Shown here in pieces: positions 28,422 to 54,373 of a stretch of DNA of 64,000 nucleotides. Made by a program: the position numbers and the translations under genes. This DNA is from an uncultured bacterium (GTDB lineage Bacteria > Patescibacteriota > Minisyncoccia > Moranbacterales > GWC2-37-73): NCBI GenBank assembly GCA_903851135.1, contig CAINNK010000037.1:1320-65319 (forward strand), read 5' to 3'. The stretch's first letter is position 1. Every line of letters starts with the position of its first letter. The notes under the pieces are model-generated. The model saw nothing but the letters and a program-made list of their open reading frames with translations, did not search any database and was not told the origin of the DNA.

Positions 28422-28497
28422 AGCGGGATGGAGCAGTCTGGCAGCTCGCGTGGCTCATAACCACGAGGTCGTAGGTTCGAATCCTACTCCCGCAACA
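28422..28497 (+). tRNA. tRNA-Met (anticodon CAT), possibly the initiator type
   Basis: I folded it by hand as a cloverleaf. The D-arm is gagc/gctc, the anticodon stem is cgtgg/ccacg with loop ctCATaa, and the T-arm is gtagg-ttcgaat-cctac. Positions 1:72 form an A-A mismatch, and the discriminator is A. Confidence 0.8.
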
Positions 28498-28599: not shown

Positions 28600-28675
28600 G
28601 GCAGGGTAGCTCAGTTGGTTAGAGCACAGCCTTCATAAGGCTGGGGTCGCGAGTCCGAGTCTCGCCCCTGCTACG
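28600..28675 (+). tRNA. tRNA with CAT anticodon (elongator Met or Ile2/lysidine type)
   Basis: It begins ggcagggtagctcagttggttagagc. The anticodon stem is cagcc/ggctg with loop ttCATaa, the T-arm is gcgag-tccgagt-ctcgc, and the acceptor 3' strand is ccctgct. Confidence 0.8.
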
Positions 28676-29595: not shown

Positions 29596-31488
29596 CTAAA
29601 CATCCATCGCTTCCAGAATCCCTTCGAGACTAGCCGTAGCCACACCTAACACGCTATCTCCCCCGCCATAATACATAAAGATATTGTCACCCCGATTTAT
29701 GATTCCGCAAGGAAAAACAACCCGAGAAACTTGGCCATTATTTTCATAGTCTGTTTCCGGTTCAAAAATAAAGTCCGTGGTTCTGGCCAGCACGATTGTC
29801 GGATCCTTCAAAGCAAGCAAAATTGCCCCGACACGATAAGTGCTACTATCTGAAACTCCGTGATAGAAAAGCAGCCAGCCTTTTTTCGTTTTGATTGGCG
29901 GCGCTGCAATCCCAACTTTTTGACTATCCCACATGCCGGTTCGCGGACCAACGATTGGCGTGAAACTTTCGATTTTGTCCATTTCAAAATTTGCCGAACG
30001 AACTCGGTCAAGGCAAATATGATTATGTGCTCGATGAAAAACAAAATAATGTCCTTTGATTTTTTCAGGAAAAAGACAGGCGTCCTTATTATCAATTCCC
30101 ACTGGCGTAATAATAGTTGGATAAGTCCAATTCCAGTTTCTTTTCAGAAAATCGCCCGCTGCAATGCTGGTCGCGGCCACACCTGGCGGATTAACACCAT
30201 CATAAGCCGTATAAAACATATACAGCGTGTCATCGATTTGCGTCAGCCGCGGATCTTCACAGCCGGAATTGCCAGGATGAGTTTTCATTTCAAAAGCTTG
30301 GCGAGGGACATAAATCGGCTCTTCCAACCTTTCCAAAATATCTTTGCCGTTTTTTGAAATTGCCAAGCCCATCACCGAAGTGTCATCACTGCCCATTGCG
30401 CGATAGACGATATAAATTTTACCTTTCAATTCGACAGCGGCCGGATTAAACACCGCTTTGTTTTCCCAGACGTGATTTTCAAGCGGAAGCAGAATTGGAT
30501 TTTTTTTGCTACGTGAAAAAACCGGCTCTCTTTTGATGCTACGCAGCAAATCATCCAAGTTCACACTGGCTCGACAACAAGTAGTGTCGGTGGCTCCGTA
30601 ATAAATGAAAAGTTTTTTGCCAGCCACAAAAGACCCGGACGGGAAAATGACATTCGGCACTTGTCCAAATTCTTCATAAGTTTCTTCCGGCACCAACAAG
30701 GGCCCGGAAGTTCTAGCCACAATTTTCCGTGGGTCTTTCAAATCCAAAAGCAAAGCCTCAATACCAAAAATTTTATGATCACTGAAATAATTTTGAATAT
30801 GCGAATATATCATCAGCCAGCCGTCTTTCGTTTTGATTGGCGCTGAACCTATTTCCACATGATCAGTTTCACCTCTTCGCAAGACAATGCGATGACTTTC
30901 AATTTCACTATGCCACTTTTCCCAATAAGCTTGCGACCAAATTTCCTCCAGACTATCAAATTCAGCCAAGGCTGTAATCACAGGAGGACTGTCAGTGTGG
31001 GCACTCAGCATTGCCACATATTTGCCATTGATTTTTTCCGGAAAAAGCACCATAGCTTTAGCATTAAACGGAGTGACTAATTTTTTTTGGATGATTTTTT
31101 TGAAGTCCTTAGTGGTGGCTACAGCAATCTTGATACCTTCAGCGGCAAATGGAAAAACTGAAAGGGCGGTATAAAAAATATAGTAAGTATCATCAATTTT
31201 TGTGACGCGCGGATCTTCACAACCAAATTGCTCCCATTCGTGTTCCGGCGCAATGAACTGCCGACGCTTTTCATAATGATGCCCATCTTCACTGCAAGTA
31301 TAGCCAATGGAAGAAATTCGCAATTCTTTTTTGTGAACATATTCCATGTCTGATTCGGCTCGATACAAAGCATGAATTTTTTTCTTGTCCTGAATCGGAC
31401 ACCAATTGAAAGCGGCAAACGATTCCCAGGAATGATCTGAAATAGGTTTTAACAATGGATTGTGAGTTGATCTTCTGACAACAAGCAT
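29596..31488 (-). CDS. glycoside hydrolase family 130-like protein (beta-mannoside phosphorylase family), two tandem GH130 domains
   Basis: ORF track. GCEDPR occurs twice (FGCEDPRVTKIDDTYYIFYTA and NSGCEDPRLTQIDDTLYMFYTAYDG). FNPAAV...YRAMG matches the GH130 (formerly DUF377) beta-propeller signature. Confidence 0.75.
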   Translation of the reverse strand: MLVVRRSTHNPLLKPISDHSWESFAAFNWCPIQDKKKIHALYRAESDMEYVHKKELRISSIGYTCSEDGHHYEKRRQFIAPEHEWEQFGCEDPRVTKIDDTYYIFYTALSVFPFAAEGIKIAVATTKDFKKIIQKKLVTPFNAKAMVLFPEKINGKYVAMLSAHTDSPPVITALAEFDSLEEIWSQAYWEKWHSEIESHRIVLRRGETDHVEIGSAPIKTKDGWLMIYSHIQNYFSDHKIFGIEALLLDLKDPRKIVARTSGPLLVPEETYEEFGQVPNVIFPSGSFVAGKKLFIYYGATDTTCCRASVNLDDLLRSIKREPVFSRSKKNPILLPLENHVWENKAVFNPAAVELKGKIYIVYRAMGSDDTSVMGLAISKNGKDILERLEEPIYVPRQAFEMKTHPGNSGCEDPRLTQIDDTLYMFYTAYDGVNPPGVAATSIAAGDFLKRNWNWTYPTIITPVGIDNKDACLFPEKIKGHYFVFHRAHNHICLDRVRSANFEMDKIESFTPIVGPRTGMWDSQKVGIAAPPIKTKKGWLLFYHGVSDSSTYRVGAILLALKDPTIVLARTTDFIFEPETDYENNGQVSRVVFPCGIINRGDNIFMYYGGGDSVLGVATASLEGILEAMDV

Positions 31489-31715: not shown

Positions 31716-33545
31716 TTAATCAATTTTTTCTAATAGAAAAGATTTTTTGGAATCACTGATGGCGGGCGCAGTCAATTCTTGCAAAAATTCATTCACATTT
31801 TCCGTAGCCACGCAAACCACACTATCAGCTCCACCATAATACACAAAAAGTTTGTCATCCTTAATCACCGCCCCACAAACATAGACCACGCCAGCCTTAG
31901 CTCCCTGATTTTCATAGTGAGCCAACGGTTCCAAGATTGGATAATTACAACGATGCAAAATTTTTGTCGGATCCTTATAGTCCAAAATCATCGCTCCAAC
32001 TTTATACTTGTCAGGATCGCGTTTATCCATAGCATGATACAAAACCAACCAACCATACTCAGTCAGCAGTGGCGGTGCGCCGGCGCCCCTGACAATATTA
32101 TCCCAACGATGTTCATCAACTCCCGGTTTTTTTGTGCTTTCAATAACAATGCCCTCCTTGTCCAAATTATCAACATATTCAATGGAAATTTTCGGAGTAA
32201 TGCTATGCAAAATTGCATATTTGCCGTTAATTTTTTCTGGGAAAATCATCCAGTTTTTTTGAATCTCACCTGCCCTTGAAATCAATTTAGGCTTTTTCCA
32301 TTTCCAACTTTTACTGAGGAAATCACTGACCTTTATGGATGTCAGGGCCACGCCGGGAGGATTACACCCATCAAAAAAAACATAGGTCACATAAATCCGT
32401 TTACCAATTATGGTTGCCCGAGGATCTTCACAGCCCGCCCAACTGCCGCCGGAAACATACAAAGATTTAACAACCGGTTTCTTCTCAACGATGCGTAAAT
32501 TTTCTGCCAACGAAAAAATTGGATAATTCAAGCGTTCATTAATCGTAAATCCATCATCCGAAGCGGCATAGCCCAAAACCGAAACTCCGTTTTCACCAAT
32601 AGCCCGATAAAGCAAATGAATTTTATTATCCAAATACAAAGCGGCGGGATTAAAGGTGGCATCGCGCTCCCATTTGTTTAGCGCCTTAGGCTGCAAAATC
32701 GGATTGCTGGCGTGCCTTTTCAGTTGCCTGGTTTGCTTGGTCAAAATCAAACCTGACGAAGCAAGATTAATTGTTTTTACAAAAAATTCATTTCCAAAGG
32801 AAGACCAATAAATATGCAGTGATTCATCAATAACCGCGCAACCTAAAAATCTAATCTCATATTTCTTTTTCTCCACGGATTCCTCCCAAATTGGAACTTC
32901 CGATCGCCAAATCGGCACATAAGGTTTATCCAGAGAAAATAACGCACAGCCAATCTTTATTGTATAGCTACTCTTCTTATCAATTCTGGCATCATACAAA
33001 ACCAAAATCCCTCGTTGAACAATGACCGTGCCAATAACATGCAGCAGTGCTCCGTCATCAAAAAAATCCTTTCGTTTTGGCAACAAGTGCCCCGTGCTGT
33101 GCCAATGCGTCAAATTATCCGAAGCTGCAACCTGAATTGATTTATCGCCATAGTAAGTCAAGAAATTCTTTTTGTACTTGTGATTTGAGACAATTGGAAA
33201 AAGGCTAACCAAATCAGCGGTTCCTTTGATAATTTCAAAGTTTTGCAAGTCGTTTGACTGGGCAATTAAAATTTGTTTTTTTCCTTTAAGGCTTTGCTCC
33301 AAAAAAAGATAAGCTTTGCCACCATAAGCAAAAAAAGAAAGCGCGCCGCAATCAACTAATCGTTTTCGCCGGCCACTTTCCAAGAAAAAGCTAACTTCAT
33401 GTTTGTTTTTAAAGGCTAGTCCATCATCACTATCAGATAAAAATATTTTTGTTTCAACAAAAGTTTTAACTCCATACACAAGCACCACTTTTTTTTCGTG
33501 TTGCACGGCTGAAAAAGGATAGAATGTAGAATTTATCTTTGCCAT
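31716..33545 (-). CDS. GH130-like protein paralog (C-terminal GH130 domain, divergent N-terminal domain)
   Basis: ORF track. The C-terminal half reads ATFNPAALYLDNKIHLLYRAIGENGVSVLGYAASDDG ... AGCEDPRATIIGKRIYVTYVFFDGCNPPGV, which parallels the downstream gene. Confidence 0.7.
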   Translation of the reverse strand: MAKINSTFYPFSAVQHEKKVVLVYGVKTFVETKIFLSDSDDGLAFKNKHEVSFFLESGRRKRLVDCGALSFFAYGGKAYLFLEQSLKGKKQILIAQSNDLQNFEIIKGTADLVSLFPIVSNHKYKKNFLTYYGDKSIQVAASDNLTHWHSTGHLLPKRKDFFDDGALLHVIGTVIVQRGILVLYDARIDKKSSYTIKIGCALFSLDKPYVPIWRSEVPIWEESVEKKKYEIRFLGCAVIDESLHIYWSSFGNEFFVKTINLASSGLILTKQTRQLKRHASNPILQPKALNKWERDATFNPAALYLDNKIHLLYRAIGENGVSVLGYAASDDGFTINERLNYPIFSLAENLRIVEKKPVVKSLYVSGGSWAGCEDPRATIIGKRIYVTYVFFDGCNPPGVALTSIKVSDFLSKSWKWKKPKLISRAGEIQKNWMIFPEKINGKYAILHSITPKISIEYVDNLDKEGIVIESTKKPGVDEHRWDNIVRGAGAPPLLTEYGWLVLYHAMDKRDPDKYKVGAMILDYKDPTKILHRCNYPILEPLAHYENQGAKAGVVYVCGAVIKDDKLFVYYGGADSVVCVATENVNEFLQELTAPAISDSKKSFLLEKID

Positions 33546-42416: not shown

Positions 42417-43625
42417 CTACATCAGTGTTGAAAGATTGTAAATCGGAATCAAAATTGCAAAAACCAAGATTGCCACCCCAAGCCCCAACAAGGAAATCAG
42501 AATCGGCTCCAGCATGGTTGAAAGATTGCGCGTAATGGTGTCAGTCTCCTTACCATAAAATACGGCAATGTGTTTTAGCACCTCACTTATTTTTCCAGAA
42601 TCTTCTCCGATTTTGATCATCTGCGGTACAATCGGCGGAAAATATTGTGAACGCGCAAAAACGCTACTCATCGTTCCACCTTTTTTCACTTCATCAGCCG
42701 CTCGCAAAATAACACTTTCATAAGCTGTGCTGTTCACGACACCGCTAATAATCGTAAGCGCTCTAACTATTGGAATTCCTCCAGCTAGCAACACTGCCAA
42801 ATTCTCCGAAAAACGAGCCAAATAAACGTATTTGAAAATATTTCCAACCACCGGAATTTTCATTTTGATAATATCCCATTCTCTTTTTCCATCCTCACTG
42901 CGGATGTAGTAAACAGTTCCACTGATAATTGCAGCCAAAAAAACCAAAACTATCCACCAATATTGACTCATAAAATCACCAACATTCATCATGACTTTCG
43001 TGTACCACGGAACTTCAGCATTTAAATCTTTGAAAATAGCTGTTAGTTTTGGCAGCACCAAAGTAGAAACCACAAATCCAATTATCGTAGCCGCTGATAA
43101 AACAAACCCTGGATAGAAAAGCGCACCCCTGATTTTTGAAGTGAGATCATAATTTTTTTCCGCATTTTCAGCCAAGAAAGAAAAGGAACGTTCCAAATTT
43201 CCCGAAAGTTCACCAGCTTTAATCATACTGATCGCCAACGGCTCAAAAATATCCGTGTGTTTAGCCATCGATTCGGAAAAAGGCATACCATCCTCCAGGT
43301 CATTAACCATTTCCCAAATGATTGTTCGCAAATAAGTGTTTTCAGTTTGATCAGCTACCGCTCGCATGGAATAAATAATTGCAACCTTAGCTTCAATCAA
43401 AGTTGACATTTGCCTGAAAAAAACCGCCACTTCCCGCAGGCTGATTCCTTCCCAAAGATGTTGGAAATCTTTAATGAACTCAGGAACTTGTCTTTCCTGC
43501 TCAATTGAAATAGGCACCAGGCCTTTACTTTGCAGTATGGCGGCGGCGGCATCTTTTGTGATAGCCTCAATGTGCCCCTCCCTCAAGTCTCCGAGAGCAC
43601 TTTTAGCTTGAAAAGAAAATTTCAT
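42417..43625 (-). CDS. pilC: type IV pilus assembly platform protein (GspF/PilC family)
   Basis: ORF track. It has two T2SSF repeats, three TM segments, and is 402 aa. Confidence 0.9.
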   Translation of the reverse strand: MKFSFQAKSALGDLREGHIEAITKDAAAAILQSKGLVPISIEQERQVPEFIKDFQHLWEGISLREVAVFFRQMSTLIEAKVAIIYSMRAVADQTENTYLRTIIWEMVNDLEDGMPFSESMAKHTDIFEPLAISMIKAGELSGNLERSFSFLAENAEKNYDLTSKIRGALFYPGFVLSAATIIGFVVSTLVLPKLTAIFKDLNAEVPWYTKVMMNVGDFMSQYWWIVLVFLAAIISGTVYYIRSEDGKREWDIIKMKIPVVGNIFKYVYLARFSENLAVLLAGGIPIVRALTIISGVVNSTAYESVILRAADEVKKGGTMSSVFARSQYFPPIVPQMIKIGEDSGKISEVLKHIAVFYGKETDTITRNLSTMLEPILISLLGLGVAILVFAILIPIYNLSTLM

Positions 43626-43702
43626 AGTAATAAATTAATTAAATTATTTTTATTTCACTGTTCGAACTTTTTTGAAAAAATATCATTCTTAATAATCAAA
43701 AC

Positions 43703-44785
43703 CTATCCATTCCTTCCAACAAGCATCTGCAGATATTCGCGATTGCTAGAATAGAGCAAGGCATCGTCTACTGTTATCAAACCGCGCTGAACCAAGTCAG
43801 CCAAAGATTTATCCAAAGAAATCATCCCATCACGCAGACTGGTTTCAATGACTGAATCAATCTGATAAGTTTTATTTTCTCTAATCAAATTCTCAACCGC
43901 ATGATTATTAATCATGATTTCTAAGGCCGGAACACGCCCACCACCGACTTTCGGCAACAATCGCTGGGAAACAACACCCAAAAGCACGCTGGCCAGTTGC
44001 GATCTGATTTGATTTTGTTGATGCGCTGGAAAAACGTCAATGATACGATCAATTGTTTGTGAGGTGTCATTTGTATGCAAGGTTGCCAAGATAAGATGTC
44101 CGGTTTCAGCAGCTGTCATCGCAGTGCTAATTGTGTCCAAATCTCGCAGTTCACCAATAAGCACAACATTGGCATCTTCTCGAAAAACACTTCGCAGCCC
44201 ATCCTGAAAAGATTTTGTATCCTTACCTACTTCTCGTTGATTGATGATGCAACGGTCCTGCTCATAAACATATTCTATCGGATCTTCAATTGTCATGATG
44301 TGCTTATCTTGATTATGATTGATAAAATCAATAAGCGCCGAAAGAGTGGTTGACTTACCGTGCCCAACTGGACCAGTAATCAGTAATAATCCTTGAGTCT
44401 TGTGAGTAAATTCATACAGTGCCGGCGGGAGCCCTAATTCTTCCAAAGTTCTGATGCGACCAGAAACCAAACGCATCGCCACACTTACGTTACCTTTTTG
44501 ATAGAAAACATTAGTACGAAATCTGGCCTTTTCTTCAAAGTTATAGGAAAAATCAACTTGACCCTCAGCGATCAATCTTTTTTTGTTTTCTTCCGTCATC
44601 AAACTATCGCTCAGCATCTGCGTATCTTCCACTGACAAAATACTCTCTTGAGTGAGAGGATAAAGCTGTCCATCCAAGCGAATAGTCGGATATCGCCCCA
44701 CAACCAAATGAAGGTCTGAGGCATTTTGTTGAGCAACCAGACGCAAAAGATTTTTTACTCTTTGTTCACCATGCAATGTTGTCAT
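43703..44785 (-). CDS. pilT: type IV pilus retraction ATPase
   Basis: ORF track. It has the Walker A motif GPVGHGKSTT, Asp/His boxes, and is 360 aa. Confidence 0.9.
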   Translation of the reverse strand: MTTLHGEQRVKNLLRLVAQQNASDLHLVVGRYPTIRLDGQLYPLTQESILSVEDTQMLSDSLMTEENKKRLIAEGQVDFSYNFEEKARFRTNVFYQKGNVSVAMRLVSGRIRTLEELGLPPALYEFTHKTQGLLLITGPVGHGKSTTLSALIDFINHNQDKHIMTIEDPIEYVYEQDRCIINQREVGKDTKSFQDGLRSVFREDANVVLIGELRDLDTISTAMTAAETGHLILATLHTNDTSQTIDRIIDVFPAHQQNQIRSQLASVLLGVVSQRLLPKVGGGRVPALEIMINNHAVENLIRENKTYQIDSVIETSLRDGMISLDKSLADLVQRGLITVDDALLYSSNREYLQMLVGRNG

Positions 44786-44905
44786 TTTTTATTTTTATAT
44801 TAATTTGATTTTAATTAGATGAACTAAGCTATCAAACAACACCAAAAAAATCCCCAGAAAAATCACGCAAGCTACCAACATAGTTAACTTTATTGTACTA
44901 AAAAT

Positions 44906-45280
44906 TTACATTTTCAGCAAAGTTCTTACTTTATGTACCACCTCTGAAGGTGTGAAATGAGATTTAATCAAATAATCATTGGCTCCGGTTTCCATCCCTT
45001 CGTCGATTTTTTCTTTTTCAGAAATGTTAGTCAACATGATAATTGGAATTTCCTTCAGTTTTCCATTCTCTTTTATTTTTCTCAAAACTTCCATGCCATC
45101 CATGTATGGCATAATAACGTCTAGCAAAATAATATCAGGAACGAATTGATTCAATCTTTCAAGGGCAACAACCCCATCTTCAGCCATCATGACTTCAAAT
45201 CCTTCTTGTTGAAATTTTATTTGATAAATATCGCGAATAAAAGTGTCATCCTCTATAATTAAGATTTTCTTTTTATCCAT
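44906..45280 (-). CDS. single-domain response regulator (CheY-like receiver)
   Basis: ORF track. It reads ILIIEDD...DIILLDVIMPYMDGMEVLRKIK...ANDYLIK. It is embedded between pilT and pilB. Confidence 0.8.
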   Translation of the reverse strand: MDKKKILIIEDDTFIRDIYQIKFQQEGFEVMMAEDGVVALERLNQFVPDIILLDVIMPYMDGMEVLRKIKENGKLKEIPIIMLTNISEKEKIDEGMETGANDYLIKSHFTPSEVVHKVRTLLKM

Positions 45281-45313
45281 AATTGTTGAGCCGTTATGAT
45301 TAAAAAATTAGAC

Positions 45314-47026
45314 TTAAGCTTCATCGACGTCTCCACCGACACTTCTGCTGCCCTCCGTTACTCGCTCCACCTCAGCAAGCGTAGTCCTGCCAGCAAGTGC
45401 CTTTAGTACCCCGTCTTGTTTAATTGTAATCATCCCTTGAGTTTTTGCATAATCTTGAACAGCTTGCTCACTGCCGTCATGTTCAGAAATAATTTCTTTA
45501 ATGTTAGCATCTACTTCAAGAGCTTCAAACATTGCAATACGTCCTTTGTAACCAGTTTTTCCACACTCTTCACAACCAGCTCCTTCAAATAATGAGACTC
45601 CTTTCTTCAGATCAACCCCATATTTAGCCATATCTTCGTCTGATATCCCTTCAATTTGGCCAAGGAGATACTCCTTTGTTGATCCAGAAATGCTGACCTC
45701 ATGCTTACATTTATCGCAGATTCTTCTGACCAAACGCTGCGCAGCCACAACTCGCAAAGAAGACGCCAACAGGAAAGCTTCTACACCCATGTCAACAAGT
45801 CGAGGGATTGCTCCAATGGAGCTATTGGTATGCAAAGTTGAAAGCACTAAGTGACCAGTGAGGGCAGCATGAATTGTAAGCTCAGCAGTTTCACTATCGC
45901 GAATTTCTCCCACCATAATAACATTCGGATCTTGACGCAAAATTGAACGCAGTCCACTAGCAAAGGTATAGCCAATTTCAGGATTTATTTGACTCTGATT
46001 GATGCCAGCGATGGAATATTCAACCGGGTCCTCAAGTGTGATGATGTTTCGCTCTTCCATATTCAAAACTTCCAAGCAAGAATACAAAGTGGTTGATTTT
46101 CCACTACCAGTAGGACCAGTCATCAAAATAATTCCGAAAGGTTCACTGATATTTCTGACCAAAATATCTCCGCCTCGGCCTATGATTCCCATGTTTTCGA
46201 GACTATCCAGCTTATTGTCCTTATCCAAAAGTCGTAAAACTATTTTCTCTCCATCCATAATAGGCAAAGTTGAAACTCGAAAATCAACCGGGTGTCCATT
46301 TTCAACAACATTAAAACGACCGTCTTGCGGTTTCCTTTTTTCATCTATTTTCAAATTGGCGAGAATCTTAATTCTTGAAACTACCGCCTTTCCAACTTCT
46401 TTAGGAACAGATAATGAAGCATAAAGCAAACCATCGACACGAAAACGCACCCGATATTCTTTATCGATTGGTTCAATGTGGATGTCACTAGCTTTACCAT
46501 CAATCGCGTGACGAATAATCACACTTAAAAGTTTCGTAACTGGAGCCGACTGAACATTGCTGTCACCTCTGCCACCATCGCCCATTGCAAAACTGCCTTC
46601 CTCTTCTCCGACAGTTGCATCGTCTCGCAAAGAGTCTGCGGCTTCTTCAATCGCCTTTTCAGCTCCACCGGAATATTGCACAACCAAATCTTGAAAAACT
46701 TTCAAAGAAATCAAATAAACCTCAAACTGCAATTGAGTTTTTTCAGAAATAAATCGCAAGACATTCAGCGCATTGATGTTTTGCGGATCAACAATGCCGA
46801 CCTTAGCAATATTTTCTTTTTTCTCGAAAACAACCATCTGATTTCCCCTGGCAACATCTTCCGGAATAATATTAAGCACGTCAATAAAAACCGGAACGCT
46901 CTTATTCATATAAGGCATACCTAATTTCCTGGCCTCTTCGGCGAGAGCCTCGCCATCACTGACAGAAACAATTCCCTGGCCTTTTATTTCTGTGGCTATT
47001 TTATCATCATCAACTAAATTTTCCAT
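45314..47026 (-). CDS. pilB: type IV pilus assembly ATPase (GspE/PilB family)
   Basis: ORF track. It has an N-terminal GspE_N-like domain, the Walker A motif GPTGSGKSTT, and a tetracysteine motif (CDKC...CEEC). Confidence 0.9.
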   Translation of the reverse strand: MENLVDDDKIATEIKGQGIVSVSDGEALAEEARKLGMPYMNKSVPVFIDVLNIIPEDVARGNQMVVFEKKENIAKVGIVDPQNINALNVLRFISEKTQLQFEVYLISLKVFQDLVVQYSGGAEKAIEEAADSLRDDATVGEEEGSFAMGDGGRGDSNVQSAPVTKLLSVIIRHAIDGKASDIHIEPIDKEYRVRFRVDGLLYASLSVPKEVGKAVVSRIKILANLKIDEKRKPQDGRFNVVENGHPVDFRVSTLPIMDGEKIVLRLLDKDNKLDSLENMGIIGRGGDILVRNISEPFGIILMTGPTGSGKSTTLYSCLEVLNMEERNIITLEDPVEYSIAGINQSQINPEIGYTFASGLRSILRQDPNVIMVGEIRDSETAELTIHAALTGHLVLSTLHTNSSIGAIPRLVDMGVEAFLLASSLRVVAAQRLVRRICDKCKHEVSISGSTKEYLLGQIEGISDEDMAKYGVDLKKGVSLFEGAGCEECGKTGYKGRIAMFEALEVDANIKEIISEHDGSEQAVQDYAKTQGMITIKQDGVLKALAGRTTLAEVERVTEGSRSVGGDVDEA

Positions 47027-47100
47027 GAGAATAAATAAATATATTTAAAAACAAATAAACAAGCCTAACTAGCTAACAAAAAATCCCAATAACATAATAA

Positions 47101-47874
47101 TTACTGACTCAAGAATGGGTTATTACTTCCGGCAGAGATGCCACTCATATTGATTTTTGGAACATTTCCAGCGGTATAATCTTTCAATTTTTGAATTGTC
47201 GCATTATCAATCTCAGGATGAAAATCAGCCAGCTTCTTGTCATCAGCTTTAACTTGCTTTAGGTATCCAAAATCAACAGTAATTTTAGCCGTGATTGTGG
47301 TGGTTGACTGCGAGCCTGTAGTTGAAGTTGCAGCTGAATCACTACTGGTCGTCTTTTCAACAGTAGCTATATTTAAAGATTTTATTGAATTGAAAAGTGG
47401 AATGTGCTGAATGCCATTAAAAAAGGTTTTCAATTTATCATAATCACCATCAACCGTAATCACAGCCTGAGTATTCTGAATGATATCGATAGGTTGATTT
47501 TTCGAGGCTAAATCAGCCACAACGGAAGCAGGAGTTGGGTTATCAACAATTTCAACATTATCCAAAAAGACCCCGGCATTAGCCGCTAAATAATTAACTT
47601 CTCCCACAATTTTCTCCTCCACTTTATTCTTAGGGAGGTAGTTCAAAATCATCGCGTTACTCTCTTCATCATTTTTAATCGTATTACTCAATGAATCAAG
47701 GGCGGCTTTTTTATTCTTAACTCCCTGCAAGATCTGAAGATTGGTATTATAGTCATCACTCACCGCCTTAAAAGCAACGATTTCAGGATTTATATAGCCA
47801 AAAAAAACAGCCACTGCGAGAATTAAAATTATAGGAAAAAACAAATATTTCAACCTCATTTTTTTATTTTCCAA
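47101..47874 (-). CDS. pilO: PilO-like inner-membrane pilus assembly protein
   Basis: ORF track. It has an N-terminal TM segment, then a coiled coil. It follows the pilN-like gene. Confidence 0.5.
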   Translation of the reverse strand: MENKKMRLKYLFFPIILILAVAVFFGYINPEIVAFKAVSDDYNTNLQILQGVKNKKAALDSLSNTIKNDEESNAMILNYLPKNKVEEKIVGEVNYLAANAGVFLDNVEIVDNPTPASVVADLASKNQPIDIIQNTQAVITVDGDYDKLKTFFNGIQHIPLFNSIKSLNIATVEKTTSSDSAATSTTGSQSTTTITAKITVDFGYLKQVKADDKKLADFHPEIDNATIQKLKDYTAGNVPKINMSGISAGSNNPFLSQ

Positions 47875-48011
47875 TATTTTGTTAAATCAAACAAAAATAA
47901 TGGGTTTATTTATTTAAAATTTTATTATTCAACTAAGTAAATGAGTTATTTTTTTCAGCTTGTAAAAAATCCCCAAACCTCCACAGCCAACAAAAGTCAA
48001 TTAGCTAAAAA

Positions 48012-48533
48012 TCATTTAATATTAATTTCAACATCACATTTTATGCCTTTTGTATCCCTGCTCAAGCTCTTCACATTAACACTTGAAGCAAAATCAGCCT
48101 GTTTAAAGTTGAAAACTTGTTTTGAGACACTGTCAAAATTTGATGTTCTTAAAGTTATCAAAACCTTCTTGTCCGTTTGAGTATATGAAGAAAAGACAAT
48201 TCCCGGGATGACAACTTTGGATATATCACTAAGCACGCTATTGACTTCAATTTTTGCCCCTAAATTATTTTTCACTTCCTTCAGTCTTGTCTGCGTATCA
48301 ATAACGTCGTCCACACTTTGTTTACCACTAAGAGCCCCACTTTCTGAGGTTATTTGAATTTTCAATTCATTATTCTTTTTATCAATAGAGAGCGACCCAA
48401 ATTTTAAACCCAAGAAAGAAATGAGGATTATTGCGAAAACTGCAATAAAAACTATAATACTGAAGTTCATTTTTCCAGTACCGTTAAGCATTTCTTCTCG
48501 CTGTTGATCTTGATAAAGATTGATTGTGGTCAT
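48012..48533 (-). CDS. pilN: PilN-like inner-membrane pilus assembly protein
   Basis: ORF track. It has a short cytoplasmic N-terminus, one TM segment (FSIIVFIAVFAIILISFLGL) and a periplasmic domain. It sits immediately downstream of pilM. Confidence 0.5.
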   Translation of the reverse strand: MTTINLYQDQQREEMLNGTGKMNFSIIVFIAVFAIILISFLGLKFGSLSIDKKNNELKIQITSESGALSGKQSVDDVIDTQTRLKEVKNNLGAKIEVNSVLSDISKVVIPGIVFSSYTQTDKKVLITLRTSNFDSVSKQVFNFKQADFASSVNVKSLSRDTKGIKCDVEINIK

Positions 48534-48703
48534 GCTTGTGAATAAATCTCGGATCGACGCTAATTTATCTTCAGTAATCTCTAACTATCAAACTCGTGCT
48601 TTGCAACTGTCAGCAAATGAGCTTGGGTAGCATTAGTGATTCATGTTTTCCGTGATAATTAGTGAAAAGATTCGTGTAGATTAGTGATTTATATTCTTAA
48701 TTT

Positions 48704-49831
48704 TTATTTTCTTTTATAATCATCGATGCCGCGTAAAGCCAAACCAAGCGCTACTGAAAATGAAGATCCCAGCTCTTTCGTGAAAGGCGCAACTTCATTG
48801 CTAACAACTATACCACGCCAAGGATTTCCCATCCGCACTTTTTCACCCAAGGACCTAGTAAAATATTCTTCAATACCCTTCATCTTGGAAGTGCCACCGG
48901 AAATTATCAGTGAATCTATCCTAGCTTCTCTATTTTTTTCTTTATAAGCAGCAATGATCCTGCGCAATTCGCCCACAATCAAATCTAAGACTGGAATTAT
49001 GATAGCCGTCTCATTACTATTAAGCATGTCCTTATCACCCTTTTTGAATATTTCCGCTCTGGCTCTAGCAATATTCATGCCATCGGCAATAGCTGAAGTG
49101 ATTTCATCGCCCCCAGCATCGATATTTCTGTTAACCTGAATCACACTTTTTTCAACCAAAACGATGTTAGTTGCTCTGGATCCAATATCCACAATCAAGA
49201 AGGTTCCACCATCATCGCCAACCAGCGATCTGGCAATAGAAAAAGTTTCCAGTTCAATAGCGCTCACATCCAGACCAGCGCCGGAAACCAAGCGGTCACA
49301 ATGTTCAATATCTTTTTTTGGAGCAGCCACTAAAAGCACCTTTATCTTCCCATTAGTTCTGCCCTTTGGATCATTCTTTGCTTTAAGTTTAGCAACAAAA
49401 TTATCTTGATCTTGAAGTTTTACGCCATCCGTTTTCCTTTCAATGATTTCCCAACTCATAGCAATTTCATCAAGAGCACTAGGAATATATTTATGCGCTT
49501 CAAACTGAATCGCTTTTGCCAATTCATCATCCGGCATGTCTGGTAAATCAATAATAGTAACCAAACCGCTAAAGCCTGGGATAGAAACATAAGTTGACAC
49601 AGGCTTTATGCCCATTCTGGCAATAAGTTTTTTCAGGGATTCATTAAGCGCTTGTTCCAGCGAAGCTGATTTCAAACCGTTGTTATTGCTAGCCAAATTC
49701 AAGTCAACAAAACCATAATTTTCCAAACGAGTTTGTTGATCAGTATATGAAAGTTCCACAACTTTAATTGAGGATGTTCCGAAATCGACACCAATAAAAT
49801 GATTCTTATTTGTTTTAAACAATTCAAGCAT
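48704..49831 (-). CDS. pilM: type IV pilus assembly protein PilM (actin-like ATPase fold)
   Basis: ORF track. It reads HFIGVDFGTSSIKVVEL ... LLVAAPKKDIEH. Confidence 0.85.
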   Translation of the reverse strand: MLELFKTNKNHFIGVDFGTSSIKVVELSYTDQQTRLENYGFVDLNLASNNNGLKSASLEQALNESLKKLIARMGIKPVSTYVSIPGFSGLVTIIDLPDMPDDELAKAIQFEAHKYIPSALDEIAMSWEIIERKTDGVKLQDQDNFVAKLKAKNDPKGRTNGKIKVLLVAAPKKDIEHCDRLVSGAGLDVSAIELETFSIARSLVGDDGGTFLIVDIGSRATNIVLVEKSVIQVNRNIDAGGDEITSAIADGMNIARARAEIFKKGDKDMLNSNETAIIIPVLDLIVGELRRIIAAYKEKNREARIDSLIISGGTSKMKGIEEYFTRSLGEKVRMGNPWRGIVVSNEVAPFTKELGSSFSVALGLALRGIDDYKRK

Positions 49832-49913
49832 ATTTGTTTTTGTGTTAGGCTAAAGTCAGATATAGCAGTTACAAAAATCATAACATATATTTAAAAAATC
49901 AACAACAACAAAA

Positions 49914-50672
49914 ATGCCAACCTTGTGGACAAAAATCCTTATCAATCTCAAAAACATCAGGGGTTACGCGCTTGATATTTTTTTTCCCATTAATTGCCTT
50001 GGCTGTGGCGCTGAAGAAGGTTGGATTTGCGAAACTTGCAGTCAAAAGATTAAAATCCGTGATCAACAGCTCTGTCCTCTCTGCGAGAAAATCATAACCC
50101 CGGACGGCCAGGTCTGTTTTGCCTGCAAACACAAATCTCCCTTGAGCGGGCTGCTGGTTGCGGCAAGTTATCAAGAGCCGCTTGTCTCAAAAGCAGTCCA
50201 TCTTTTCAAGTATCGCTTCATCGAAGAATTGTCCGCACCACTAACAAAAATAATCCTCAAGGCTATTAGAAGTTACGAGTTGCCCTTGCCAGACCTTATC
50301 ATGCCAATACCCCTTCACACCAAAAGACTTCATTGGCGAGGTTTCAACCAATCTTCCTTGCTAGCAAAAAACCTGGCTGAAAATCTTTTGCCAAATTCAC
50401 AACTGGAAGTTTGCGAAGATATTCTAATACGCAGTCGGCACACCTTACCGCAAATGAGTCTAAAGGACCACCAACAGCGAAATCGGAACATTCAAAACGC
50501 TTTCACCATCAACGATTTCTCAAAAATTAAAGACAAAAGAATTTTACTCGTTGATGACATCACCACCACTGGTTCAACCATTTTCGAATGTGCTCGCGTA
50601 CTCAAAAAAGCCGGCGCCAAAGAAATTTATGCTACTGTAATTGCCAGACAGGAATACAAAAAGAAATCCTAA
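49914..50672 (+). CDS. comFC: ComF-family protein (double zinc ribbon plus phosphoribosyltransferase domain)
   Basis: ORF track. The zinc ribbon reads CLGCGAEEGWICETC...CPLCEK...CFAC. The PRTase motif is ILLVDDITTTGSTI. Confidence 0.8.
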   Translation: MPTLWTKILINLKNIRGYALDIFFPINCLGCGAEEGWICETCSQKIKIRDQQLCPLCEKIITPDGQVCFACKHKSPLSGLLVAASYQEPLVSKAVHLFKYRFIEELSAPLTKIILKAIRSYELPLPDLIMPIPLHTKRLHWRGFNQSSLLAKNLAENLLPNSQLEVCEDILIRSRHTLPQMSLKDHQQRNRNIQNAFTINDFSKIKDKRILLVDDITTTGSTIFECARVLKKAGAKEIYATVIARQEYKKKS

Positions 50673-51619: not shown

Positions 51620-54175
51620 TTATTTTTTTGATAATTTCTTAACCCAAAATTGAAACTGTTCACCCTTTTCTTCAAAATTTTTCCACACGCTATAACTCGG
51701 CGAAGCCGTGGAAAGCAAGCAGACTGAGCCTTTTGGTGTATTTTCAAAAGCAAATGCCACCGCTTCCTTCATGCTTTTTGTTTCCAAAATGTTAAGTCCT
51801 TTTTGTGATTTGAAAATTCTTTTGCCACTATCCGGGAAAAGCACCACGTTTTTGACGCCCTTTTTGCGGATTTGCTTTTCAAGCTTGGAAAAATCATAGC
51901 CGCGATCTTGCCCGCCCAGAAAAATAGTTCCAACATTTTCAATTGCTTCCAAGGCCATCATGGTTGATTCCGGCGTGGTTGAAATCGCATCATCAAAAAA
52001 TTTAATATCACCAAATTGCCCCACAAATTCCAACCGGTGAGCAAGCGATTTGAATTTTTTGAGCGCCTTTTTAATTGCGTCATCTGAAATTCCAAACTCT
52101 TTCGCGACCGTCACTGCCGCTCGGATGTTGTTTTGATTATGCTCACCCAACAATGACGATTCAAAACCATCCAGCGAAATTTCAGCAAAAGACTTTTTTT
52201 GCGCCACTGTTGCGCTAGCCCAGTTTTTAAGTTTTTGATCTTTAGCGTTATAAACAAAAACATCTTCAGAGTCTTGAAAAGAAACTATCCTCTTTTTGGC
52301 TTGATAATAATTATCAATCCCACCGTGATAATCCATATGCTCAGGAAAAAAATTCAGCGCCACGGCGATGTTTGGCGAATAAGCGATGTCATCCAGTTGA
52401 TAACTGGAAAGTTCCAACACAAAAATTTCTTCAGGATCAATCTTGCCTAGCAACGCTCCCAGCATCGGAGTGCCAATATTTCCCAACAGCCGAACTTTTT
52501 TGCCAGCCTCTTTCAAAATTGCGGCAATTAAAGAAGCGGTGGTGCTTTTGCCCTTGCTACCAGTCACCCCAATTGTGAAATTTTTGTTTTGCGCAAAAAA
52601 CAAATTTGTAGCTGTCACATACGGAATTGAGACTTTTTCCTTTTTTATTCCCGGCGTTTTGATGGCCAAATCATAATCAGCCTGACTTGCTAGATAGTTT
52701 TCATCCAGATTCCCGTCAGCGATTCCAATTTTCAATTTTGGAAAATATTTTTTCAGATATTTTTCTGTCGTCTTTCCTTCCTTGCCATAACCAAGAATCA
52801 GGATATTATATAGTCCAAGTAATCTGAAATTTTCTGGCAAAGTTTCAACTTGATTGACTTTAAAAACTTCCTTAACCAGTTTTTCTGGATTTTTTATTTT
52901 TGGTAAAAGTTTTTTCAAAATAAAAGTTTCGCCAAAATTTTTACGTGCCAAATATAACGCTGCTTGCGATTCAGCAAAAGTTCCAACACAATCAAAAGGT
53001 TTCATTTTGCCAAAACCAAGCACGTCTTCAAACATTGGCAAAAGTTTTTCATCTTCAAAAAGATTTTTTCCAAAAATTTTCAACAACTCCGGCTTTTTCA
53101 AAAAAGAAGCCAGTAGCGTGAAAACAAAAACGCATTTCGCGCACTCACCGCACCACAACTTCTCTTGGCGATTCTTGTGAACTTTAAAGTTCCGATTACA
53201 GCTAGAAAAAGACGCAAAATATTTCTGTTGCCTGGCAAACATTTGCGCAATACGAATTTCATAAAACTGCCTTAACAAGGAAAAGTAAACTACATCAGAT
53301 GAAAAAAGTTTTTTTGTATAAGTTTGGAAAAGTTTCTCAAACTCCATTGACTTGCTCCATTGATGATTCACGCTCTCACCTTTATACTTAATGTTGCCAA
53401 AGTTGCTACTAAATTCATTGCCAACCACCACATGCGAATAATCATACAAAATCGCCGTCAAATATCCAACAAAAGCAAAGACTGCTGAAATCGGAACATG
53501 CCCATTATAAGCACCTTCAAATTTTTCAAATATTTTTTTATCCAAAAATCGTTGCACTTTCAAAGCTGGGATGTCCATCGTTTTTACAACCGTATCGGAA
53601 ATTGGAGAACCCTGTTGGGTTTCAATTAAAAGCGCCGTGATTTTCTGCCCATTTTCCTTGAGCAATTCCCCTGCCACAATTGAATCTTTCCCTCCGCCAA
53701 TTCCCACTAACATTCGTTGCTTTCTTTTCAGGCTATAGCTTTTGATTTTCACTTTCGAGCTATATGGAAATTCAATCAATCCCTGTGGGTCAATTTTATT
53801 CTGAAAGAAAAATTCTCCCAAACCTTTTCGATAAACCACATTGAAAAATTTCGCCTGCTCCTTGGAAATTAGTTTAAACAATTTTATTTTCGGCGGACAA
53901 TAAAGTTTGAAGTAGCTGATTCCCAACATCAAATGCACGCTTTGCAAAACATTTTCCAACAGCTCAGCTGGAACGTTTTCAAGAGATATTTTTCTTGGAA
54001 AGATAATTGTCTCAAAAAATTCCAAGGTTGGTCGATTTTCAAATTCAATCGCATATCCAAAAACAGCCTGCTTTTTCTCAGGCTGCAATTGATATGAGGT
54101 AAACACAAAATTTTTCGCAATTGGCGCTTTATTCATTAATTTTTTCCATATTCCACAGAGACTTAAGCATAGCAA
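51620..54175 (-). CDS. murD: fusion protein: N-terminal ~430-aa domain with a PP-loop-like motif, plus a full-length C-terminal UDP-N-acetylmuramoylalanine--D-glutamate ligase (MurD)
   Basis: ORF track. The C-terminal ~420 aa has the MurD N-terminal Rossmann segment (ILILGYGKEGKT) and the Mur ligase P-loop VGVTGSKGKSTTASLIAAIL. The N-terminal half carries LVGIGGGKDSIVAGELL (SGGxDS-like) and CGECAKC. Confidence 0.8.
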   Translation of the reverse strand: MLCLSLCGIWKKLMNKAPIAKNFVFTSYQLQPEKKQAVFGYAIEFENRPTLEFFETIIFPRKISLENVPAELLENVLQSVHLMLGISYFKLYCPPKIKLFKLISKEQAKFFNVVYRKGLGEFFFQNKIDPQGLIEFPYSSKVKIKSYSLKRKQRMLVGIGGGKDSIVAGELLKENGQKITALLIETQQGSPISDTVVKTMDIPALKVQRFLDKKIFEKFEGAYNGHVPISAVFAFVGYLTAILYDYSHVVVGNEFSSNFGNIKYKGESVNHQWSKSMEFEKLFQTYTKKLFSSDVVYFSLLRQFYEIRIAQMFARQQKYFASFSSCNRNFKVHKNRQEKLWCGECAKCVFVFTLLASFLKKPELLKIFGKNLFEDEKLLPMFEDVLGFGKMKPFDCVGTFAESQAALYLARKNFGETFILKKLLPKIKNPEKLVKEVFKVNQVETLPENFRLLGLYNILILGYGKEGKTTEKYLKKYFPKLKIGIADGNLDENYLASQADYDLAIKTPGIKKEKVSIPYVTATNLFFAQNKNFTIGVTGSKGKSTTASLIAAILKEAGKKVRLLGNIGTPMLGALLGKIDPEEIFVLELSSYQLDDIAYSPNIAVALNFFPEHMDYHGGIDNYYQAKKRIVSFQDSEDVFVYNAKDQKLKNWASATVAQKKSFAEISLDGFESSLLGEHNQNNIRAAVTVAKEFGISDDAIKKALKKFKSLAHRLEFVGQFGDIKFFDDAISTTPESTMMALEAIENVGTIFLGGQDRGYDFSKLEKQIRKKGVKNVVLFPDSGKRIFKSQKGLNILETKSMKEAVAFAFENTPKGSVCLLSTASPSYSVWKNFEEKGEQFQFWVKKLSKK

Positions 54176-54216
54176 ATTTGAAACTCAAAATCAATGAGAT
54201 CGAAATTTTTATTGCA

Positions 54217-54373
54217 CAAAGCCGCTCATTGCAACCCCGATGAAATATGGCCAGACGGCAATGGCAAGCACGCCTTCCCAAAAGGAAAGATGCAGAAAGC
54301 CGATTGTGAACAGCCAGCCGGCAAACCACGAGAACGCCGTGAACCCGTGTTGCTCGATTTTGATTTTTTCCAT
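54217..54373 (-). CDS. possible tiny membrane protein (about 52 aa)
   Basis: My own translation reads MEKIKIEQHGFTAFSWFAGWLFTIGFLHLSFWEGVLAIAVWPYFIGVAMSGFVQ. It has two hydrophobic helices. It is below the ORF-track length cutoff. Confidence 0.3.

Follow-up and report, generated by a model that had tools for sequence, protein, structure and literature searches.

A fused murL-murD2 gene in Patescibacteria, predicted to serve both steps of an alternative route to the D-glutamate of peptidoglycan

The window analysed here is a stretch of 64,000 nucleotides (contig CAINNK010000037.1) from an uncultured bacterium of the Patescibacteriota, order Moranbacterales, and on its minus strand one open reading frame (ORF) joins a homolog of the epimerase MurL to a Mur ligase resembling MurD2. 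Judged from homology, specificity residues and structural models, this gene very probably encodes a bifunctional L-glutamate (L-Glu) ligase and epimerase that would perform both steps of the MurD2/MurL route to the D-glutamate (D-Glu) of peptidoglycan. A preliminary description of the sequence had raised the idea of a MurD fused to an epimerase-like partner, and the combination of MurL homology and MurD2 residues within one ORF supports it.

The alternative route to D-Glu through MurD2 (XOO_1320) and MurL (XOO_1319) is known from Xanthomonas oryzae (Feng et al. 2017; PMC8788868, PMC5808125). In this organism MurD2 adds L-Glu and MurL turns the terminal L-Glu into D-Glu in one direction, using ATP and Mg and releasing AMP; MurL activity has been demonstrated for the X. 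oryzae, Micromonospora and Salinispora enzymes only (PMC5808125, PMC8788868). A 2021 review describes the pathway as confined to a few genera of Gamma- and Alphaproteobacteria and to rare actinomycetes, and presents it as a narrow-spectrum drug target (PMC8788868). The searchable literature yielded no account of a fused MurL-MurD or of a distribution in the candidate phyla radiation (CPR)/Patescibacteria, no assignment of MurL to the PP-loop fold and no recent structural or mechanistic work on MurL. The pathway itself is known; new relative to this literature are the covalent fusion, its prevalence in a very large uncultured radiation and the fold assignment for MurL.

According to the ORF listing of the window, positions 51620..54175 of the minus strand form a single uninterrupted ORF of 851 amino acids (aa) from a TTG to the stop, to which the residue numbers below refer. 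The ATG at 54136 is probably the start; the resulting product of 838 aa opens with MNKAPI and is 100% identical to a database protein (P0001) called on an independent ENA scaffold of 4.1 kb. The preliminary description had noticed a domain of about 430 aa in front of MurD in the same ORF, and this extension of about 440 aa is real and far above chance. As to the motifs named there, LVGIGGGKDSIVAGELL and CGECAKC are present as given, while the P-loop of the ligase reads IGVTGSKGKSTT and differs by one letter from the VGVTGSKGKSTT quoted. The parts of the gene are:

51620..54136, minus strand: whole murL-murD2 fusion gene, 838 aa plus stop from the ATG; the stop-to-stop ORF reaches the TTG at 54175
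52826..54136, minus strand: MurL half, with N-terminal subdomain, predicted PP-loop ATP-pyrophosphatase core and helical C-terminal subdomain (NF041275, AlphaFold2, Foldseek)
51623..52813, minus strand: predicted MurD2-type Mur ligase module, residues 455-851 (TIGR01087, Mur_ligase_M, Mur_ligase_C, specificity residues)

Homology and predicted fold of the two halves

A likeness of the N-terminal domain to MurL had been proposed as an analogy drawn from a short motif; on sequence comparison the relationship is one of homology. The NCBIfam model NF041275 (MurL_Xanthmoales) matches residues 20-448 over positions 7-437 of its 447 (E=2.6e-104, 349 bits), the half is 36% identical to the annotated MurL of Xanthomonas sacchari over residues 32-441 (E=5e-86), and the precomputed Pfam labels in the protein database are MurL_N (PF26299) and MurL_epimerase_C (PF26298). 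The Pfam set used for the local domain scan lacked the MurL families and returned only the Mur ligase domains and a sub-threshold PP-loop match; a sequence search of the PDB with the MurL half found no match even at E≤1. Alignment of fused CPR, split CPR and Xanthomonas MurL sequences revealed a shared set of invariant motifs, namely GGGKDS, NGHxP, NE, NHQWSK, SCN, WCxxCxKC and KPFxCVG, the first of which is unchanged across 38 fused proteins, the split CPR forms and Xanthomonas MurL. The N-terminal domain thus belongs to a nucleotide-binding family and not to an unrelated one devoid of such a motif. The principal motifs in the window are:

53681..53698, minus strand: GGGKDS, residues 160-165, a variant of the canonical PP-loop SGGxDS and predicted site for the alpha/beta-phosphates of ATP in adenylation
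53348..53368, minus strand: NHQWSKS, residues 270-276, an invariant MurL signature and candidate substrate or catalytic site
53132..53203, minus strand: SCN-x13-WCGECAKC, residues 325-348, with invariant Cys326, Cys342, Cys345 and Cys348, a predicted QueC-like Zn site
52979..53002, minus strand: KPFDCVGT, residues 392-399 (KPFECVG in Xanthomonas), with invariant Cys396, a candidate acid/base for proton exchange at C-alpha

What kind of fold do these motifs sit in? An AlphaFold2 model of the N-terminal half, built from 38 aligned sequences, reached a mean predicted local distance difference test (pLDDT) score of 92.6 and a predicted template modelling (pTM) score of 0.92. When it was compared with the PDB by Foldseek, all 17 matches at E≤0.001 were PP-loop ATP pyrophosphatases (QueC, Cap9, TtuA and NMN synthetase; probability 0.97-1.00), the best fits being the QueC-like Cap9 (9nto_B, E=4e-5, target TM 0.66) and QueC itself (3bl5 and 2pg3, target TM 0.60-0.63). 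Just under this line followed argininosuccinate synthase, MnmA/TrmU, NAD synthetase, asparagine synthetase B and carbapenam synthetase. In the model GGGKDS lies between the first core strand (139-145) and the following helix (150-161, both in the numbering of the N-terminal half), which is the classical position of a PP-loop, and hhalign pairs LVGIGGGKDS with VVFSGGQDS of E. coli QueC. The PP-loop motif suspected in the preliminary description has thereby gained a strand-loop-helix setting and a consistent set of structural relatives, and according to the model the MurL half has the PP-loop fold. MurL has been said to lack known conserved domains, and its reaction depends on ATP and Mg and liberates AMP (PMC5808125, PMC8788868); a PP-loop fold would directly explain these requirements. 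The four invariant cysteines follow in the MurL alignment the pattern C-x15-C-x2-C-x2-C. This pattern resembles the zinc site of QueC, and the cluster may bind zinc, QueC and Cap9 being the best structural fits.

The C-terminal half is a complete Mur ligase, described before as a MurD. Its residues 458-846 score above the curated murD threshold of TIGR01087 (270.3 bits versus 211.95) and match Mur_ligase_M and Mur_ligase_C, and the half aligns with solved MurD structures in the PDB at E=1e-50 to 1e-33. TIGR01087 evidently fails to tell MurD apart from MurD2, the enzyme that takes L-Glu. Residues near the bound Glu are, however, informative: E. coli Asp182, Lys348, Ala414 and Leu416 correspond to Glu197, Arg358, Pro433 and Phe435 of X. 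oryzae MurD2, an enzyme that the double mutation E197D/R358K converts into a D-Glu ligase, and E. coli MurD K319T gains some use of L-Glu (PMC8788868). These positions were scored in the window protein, in 121 fused proteins and in X. sacchari MurD2, after it had been confirmed that the numbering of E. coli MurD begins at Ala1:

E. coli Asp182: Glu612 in the window protein; Glu in 105 and Asp in 16 of the fused proteins; Glu in X. sacchari MurD2
E. coli Lys319: Ile731 in the window protein; Ile in 113, Asn in 5, Ala in 2, Thr in 1 and never Lys among the fused proteins; Ile in X. sacchari MurD2
E. coli Lys348: Arg758 in the window protein; Arg in all 121 fused proteins; Arg in X. sacchari MurD2
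E. coli Ala414: Pro826 in the window protein; Pro in all 121 fused proteins; Pro in X. sacchari MurD2
E. coli Leu416: Tyr828 in the window protein; Tyr in 119 and Phe in 2 of the fused proteins; Phe in X. sacchari MurD2

The window ligase does not have the residues of the canonical D-Glu pocket and carries Ile731, Pro826 and Glu612 instead. By comparison, all three canonical MurDs inspected (E. coli, S. agalactiae 3lk7 and A. baumannii 7sir) keep Lys319 and Ala414 and have Asp or Thr at 182. Other positions are preserved: the catalytic residues Lys115, Asn138, His183, Lys198, Thr321 and Ser415 (E. coli numbering) stand in every sequence compared, all 121 fused proteins included. Position 422 is aromatic throughout; 119 fused proteins keep the Phe, and the other 2 have Tyr, as does X. 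sacchari MurD2. The window ligase furthermore has local motifs in common with X. sacchari MurD2, which read NLFPEHLD, NDSISTTP, GGHDRG and APSF in the latter. From these residues the module is predicted to be a UDP-MurNAc-L-Ala:L-glutamate ligase of the MurD2 type, in keeping with the earlier suggestion of a MurD paralog that adds L-Glu. The segments concerned are:

52538..52570, minus strand: ATP P-loop of the ligase, GVTGSKGKSTT, residues 536-546; Lys543 corresponds to E. coli Lys115
52322..52348, minus strand: FPEHMDYHG, residues 610-618; Glu612 corresponds to E. coli Asp182 and X. oryzae Glu197, His613 to His183
51962..51994, minus strand: DDAISTTPEST, residues 728-738; Ile731 replaces E. 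coli Lys319, Thr733 corresponds to Thr321
51890..51916, minus strand: GGQDRGYDF, residues 754-762; Arg758 corresponds to E. coli Lys348 and MurD2 Arg358
51662..51712, minus strand: STASPSYSVWKNFEEKG, residues 822-838; Pro826 and Tyr828 correspond to E. coli Ala414 and Leu416 (MurD2 Pro433 and Phe435)

The specificity positions vary in some family members (L065, L073, L080, L081 and P0114). Two split forms likewise show Asp for Glu at 182. L080 and the Levyibacteriota-labelled L081, which diverge most among the split forms, carry Leu at 319 and Ala at 414. Judged by these residues, such variants may differ in their stereoselectivity for Glu.

Spread and probable origin of the fusion

A word-indexed search of protein clusters found at least 120 clusters of fused proteins with lengths of 781-885 aa, which are 56-100% identical to the query and cover 94-100% of it. 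Where names are given, they point to Moranbacteria, Uhrbacteria, Buchananbacteria, Parcubacteria and Patescibacteria, and the close relatives P0002-P0005 (87-89% identity) have the same length as the window protein. With the MurL half alone, an exhaustive HMMER search retrieved 2,543 clusters (50% identity) at E≤1e-3 and 1,172 at E≤1e-30; among the top 150, standalone proteins of about 440-470 aa and fused ones of about 795-914 aa are mixed. When each GTDB species was represented by a single genome and scanned with the patterns [IV]NHQWSKS and [VL]G[IV]GGGKDS, at least 600 stretches were hit and at least 583 species-representative loci confirmed, of which the best 80 are nearly all from Patescibacteria. 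The architecture was counted in these best 80: MurL and ligase form one ORF in 67, in 12 the two are separate genes of one strand, with murD directly following murL, and one locus ends at a contig edge. The fused form is carried, for example, by the complete genome OZ246396.1 and the 971-kb contig JAQTXZ010000001.1, the split form by the complete genome CP066689.1. Contigs labelled Moranii-, Uhr-, Staskawicz-, Kaiser-, Peregrini- or Peribacteria have the fused form, as do nearly all of those labelled Parcubacteria or Patescibacteria group, and contigs labelled Roizman- or Levyibacteria have the split form; the pattern of fused and split forms largely follows the labels. As most loci are fused, the remaining pairs adjacent and the order the same as in Xanthomonas, the fusion is a conserved trait tracking lineage; beyond the source genome, much of Patescibacteria usually has the fused form. 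A route deemed narrow is represented by the same two enzymes, usually in one chain, in at least 583 species-representative genomes.

Several contigs with murL/murD of the CPR type and a GC content of 33-47% (L010, L026, L048, L067, L073-L075, L077, L079 and L080) bear the labels 'uncultured Gammaproteobacteria', 'Weeksellaceae' or 'Omnitrophota'. They are probably mislabelled or mis-binned contigs of metagenome-assembled genomes.

Could the long ORF be an artefact, in which a sequencing or assembly frameshift at an overlapping stop and start joined adjacent murL and murD genes? Some Patescibacteria, like Xanthomonas, indeed have murL and murD as two overlapping genes, and a one-base error at an ATGA overlap would join them. 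Yet the single ORF recurs in independent assemblies from many studies and in the protein clusters at 56-100% identity, close relatives are of equal length, fused and split forms sort largely by contig label, and the junction is predicted to be structured. The probability of an artefact is consequently negligible; a frameshift separating two genes, which the preliminary description had considered as an objection, is ruled out because dozens of independent genomes have conserved the fusion.

The end of MurL runs directly into the Rossmann strand of MurD:

52772..52840, minus strand: junction LPENFRLLGLYNILILGYGKEGK, residues 446-468

Fused junctions of the kind ...LPENF-RLLGLYN-ILILGYGKEGK have essentially no linker. 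In the full-length AlphaFold model this region (model residues 421-450, about 434-463 of the ORF) has a pLDDT of 93-94, and the model suggests that the two enzymes form a compact body. The split forms end and start where the fused proteins join, and in 9 of the 12 split loci the stop of murL and the start of murD overlap in ATGA. The simplest origin of the fusion would be the loss of such an overlap between translationally coupled murL and murD genes.

Predicted reaction path and its weighing

How would such a protein make the D-Glu-containing precursor? As a first step, suggested by the ligase residues, the C-terminal module (about 455-851) would join L-Glu to UDP-MurNAc-L-Ala with ATP via an acyl-phosphate intermediate. 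In the second step, for which homology and fold are the guide, the MurL module (about 14-450) would bind ATP-Mg at the GGGKDS PP-loop and adenylate the alpha-carboxylate of the terminal L-Glu with release of PPi. Activation of the alpha-carboxylate would acidify the C-alpha proton, which could leave and return on the opposite face by means of an enzyme base, for which the invariant Cys396 and His226 are candidates; alternatively, an oxazolone might form with the carbonyl of the preceding Ala. Hydrolysis of the adenylate would render the epimerization irreversible, and thereafter MurE would proceed as usual. The role of the fusion is probably to pass the L-Glu intermediate directly between the active sites and to hold the two activities at 1:1. 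The PP-loop/QueC fold, the invariant Cys cluster and the separate invariant Cys offer concrete residues for a mechanism of adenylation and epimerization, and the natural single-chain fusion would be convenient for structural work and for the question of L-Glu channelling.

A number of observations weigh against this picture. The 349 bits of the MurL half are well below the curated equivalog cut-off of 700 for NF041275, so that an automatic transfer of the database name would fail. However, the model was built for Xanthomonadales and a shortfall is expected in a distant phylum; the low score therefore restricts automatic naming and is no argument against MurL homology. Profile evidence for the PP-loop is weak: the best Pfam match, to the HUP domain of tRNA_Me_trans, has E=0.13, and when the MurL alignment was compared with E. 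coli QueC by hhalign, the PP-loop alone was aligned, at a non-significant E=0.009 and 4% probability, which is why the fold assignment is drawn from the predicted structure. The full-length model (pLDDT 89.4, pTM 0.84) comes without a map of predicted aligned errors, and we infer the catalytic base, the metal site and the channelling of substrate. On the side of the ligase, overall identity is non-discriminating (29% to Xanthomonas MurD2, 30% to E. coli MurD), so that the MurD2 call depends on a few positions and the local motifs, and Arg at 348 together with an aromatic residue at 416 is also found in a canonical Gram-positive MurD (alignment with 3lk7). Asp occupies position 182 in 16 of the 121 fused proteins, and the same single change from Glu to Asp alters the stereospecificity of X. 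oryzae MurD2 (PMC8788868). Finally, a tblastn search with E. coli MurI as the only query and without a positive control from CPR found nothing better than E=0.85 in the window and the 80 loci (1.28 Mb), a result that says little, since in scattered CPR DNA amounting to about 1.3 Mb only about one murI would be expected if all the genomes possessed the gene.

Part of this evidence would suit a ligase that is an ordinary D-Glu-adding MurD, as NCBI names it, with the MurL-like half using adenylation for some other reaction of the same precursor. This half might, for instance, amidate the alpha-carboxylate of Glu to iso-glutamine in the manner of other PP-loop amidotransferases or correct stray misincorporation of L-Glu. 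The murD score lies above the curated cut-off, the ligase half has no greater overall identity with Xanthomonas MurD2 than with E. coli MurD, the Asp variants at 182 exist, and many relatives of the PP-loop fold (NAD synthetase, asparagine synthetase B, QueC) make amides or nitriles and do not epimerize. Nevertheless, all conserved motifs of the Xanthomonadales MurL are retained and the match spans the whole MurL model. Pfam and NCBIfam scans detected no glutaminase or ammonia-channel domain; with all MurL motifs kept, this makes the amidotransferase reading of the PP-loop domain unlikely. Moreover, Lys319 and Ala414, which the three canonical MurDs keep, are replaced exactly as in Xanthomonas MurD2, murL precedes murD as in Xanthomonas, and Glu612 occurs together with Arg758, at positions where the E. 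coli identities switch X. oryzae MurD2 to D-Glu (PMC8788868). An ordinary MurD, like either of the two other jobs for its partner, is accordingly improbable, and ligation of L-Glu followed by epimerization is preferred.

A broader proposition is that fused MurL-MurD2 is the sole source of peptidoglycan D-Glu in most Patescibacteria, which would make no free D-Glu and have no murI; we consider the chances of this to be even. If it holds, a pathway called rare would rank among the D-Glu routes with the widest distribution in bacteria, a stable single-chain form would be at hand for solving the mechanism and structure of MurL, and the apparent lack of murI in metabolic reconstructions of reduced genomes, once confirmed, would be closed as a gap. 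The opposite notion, that the fusion makes the D-Glu precursor redundantly beside MurI or import of D-Glu, as a backup or for a different polymer, draws on another CPR lineage: a glutamate racemase is reported to have been shown experimentally in Ca. Saccharimonas aalborgensis (Penalver et al. 2024, cited in PMC11974145), and the radiation is therefore not uniform. Against redundancy, murI is absent in the characterized MurD2/MurL organisms (PMC8788868). The window and the 80 loci, 1.28 Mb in all, contain no second MurD-type ligase, so that the only MurD seen is of the predicted L-Glu type. Patescibacteria genomes are strongly reduced, which would make redundant routes unlikely. Redundancy of the fused enzyme is therefore very improbable.

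Known systems, annotation and neighbouring genes

Compared with the Xanthomonas system, both halves are homologous to MurL and MurD2, the predicted chemistry is the same, and so is the gene order, murL then murD. The specificity residues Glu, Ile, Arg and Pro agree, with Tyr in the window versus Phe in Xanthomonas. The differences are that the Xanthomonas genes are separate with an overlap of 20 nt, whereas here one 838-aa chain without a free linker is found, that the host belongs to the Patescibacteria (CPR), outside the published distribution, and that the two halves share no more than 29-36% identity with the Xanthomonas proteins, the MurL half scoring under the equivalog cut-off of NCBIfam. 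With canonical MurD the window ligase shares the three-domain architecture, the P-loop, His183, the carbamylated Lys198, Thr321, Ser415 and Phe422 and a score above the murD threshold; it differs by the changes Asp182 to Glu, Lys319 to Ile, Lys348 to Arg, Ala414 to Pro and Leu416 to Tyr, by the fused epimerase and by its location outside any dcw cluster. The MurL half resembles the PP-loop enzymes QueC and Cap9 in the fold of its central 200 or so residues, in the glycine-rich xGGxDS loop after the first strand, in a C-terminal Cys cluster ending CxxCxxC and, as predicted for the window protein, in carboxylate activation by ATP with release of AMP. Unlike them it has Gly and not Ser as first residue of the motif, adds an N-terminal (about 125 aa) and a C-terminal helical subdomain (about 90 aa), shows no significant sequence similarity to a PP-loop family in Pfam (E=0.13), and would end in epimerization and hydrolysis instead of amide or nitrile formation. 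Mur ligases joined to the enzyme of a neighbouring step are also known as MurC/Ddl (NF011171), MurE/MurF (NF008896) and the 'multifunctional fusion protein' of PDB 8f5d; here the partner is an epimerase that would act on the ligase's own product and stands N-terminally though acting second.

The fusion is partly implicit in databases, as the Pfam MurL families match and JGI names some of the proteins after the epimerase only. NCBI mostly names fused proteins D-glutamate ligases (for example P0006, P0022, P0024 and P0033), a name that keeps the epimerase half out of sight and probably assigns the wrong enantiomer of the substrate.

The X. sacchari murL used for comparison comes from a sequence of 508 kb labelled as a plasmid (L084, NZ_CP010410.1), in which murD is encoded immediately after murL. 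It also carries a gene for a bifunctional aspartate kinase/diaminopimelate decarboxylase and ssb, and murL-murD is presumably essential; the replicon resembles a chromid or a piece of a chromosome more than a plasmid. MurL-like 'hypothetical proteins' with 27-31% identity over nearly the full length are encoded on mobilizable Pseudonocardia plasmids (L085, 4962-6362; L086, 4983-6392). No Mur ligase lies within 5 kb of these two genes, whose neighbours encode a giant WD40-repeat protein, a ParA-family protein and a GH16 protein, and the MurL fold family therefore seems to have orphan members, maybe for other substrates.

In the window, the fusion gene is followed downstream on the same strand by a gene for a CYTH-domain protein and further on by a ComF-like phosphoribosyltransferase gene on the opposite strand. 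A type IV pilus cluster (PilM, PilO, two T2SSE ATPases and T2SSF/PilC) occupies 42417-50672 on the minus strand, as does the fusion, and the ComF-like protein encoded beside it on the plus strand has a double zinc ribbon. Pilus cluster and ComF-like gene are possibly a DNA-uptake apparatus beside the mur fusion. Directly upstream of the fusion gene is a small ORF for a hydrophobic protein of 54 aa (54209-54373, minus strand), which was likewise called on an independent ENA scaffold (L002, 250-414); small ORFs, an M20 peptidase, a nitroreductase and LexA are encoded upstream as well.

Elsewhere in the window, three consecutive giant ORFs of 3065, 2051 and 2268 aa span 1569-24211 on the minus strand. 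The first contains 13 RCC1 repeats, 8 purple-acid-phosphatase-N domains and one fn3 domain, the second 28 FG-GAP repeats and the third a Peptidase_S74 intramolecular-chaperone domain, and all three are probably huge surface or adhesion proteins. Tandem GH130 proteins of the mannoside phosphorylase type, 630 and 609 aa long, are encoded at 29596-31488 and 31716-33545 (minus strand), both with an N-terminal extension of about 280-320 aa that has no Pfam match. Two tandem tRNA-Met(CAT) genes (28422-28496 and 28600-28674, plus strand) lie about 100 nt apart with a tRNA-Asp gene nearby; they are probably an initiator/elongator pair or include a tRNA-Ile2 precursor.

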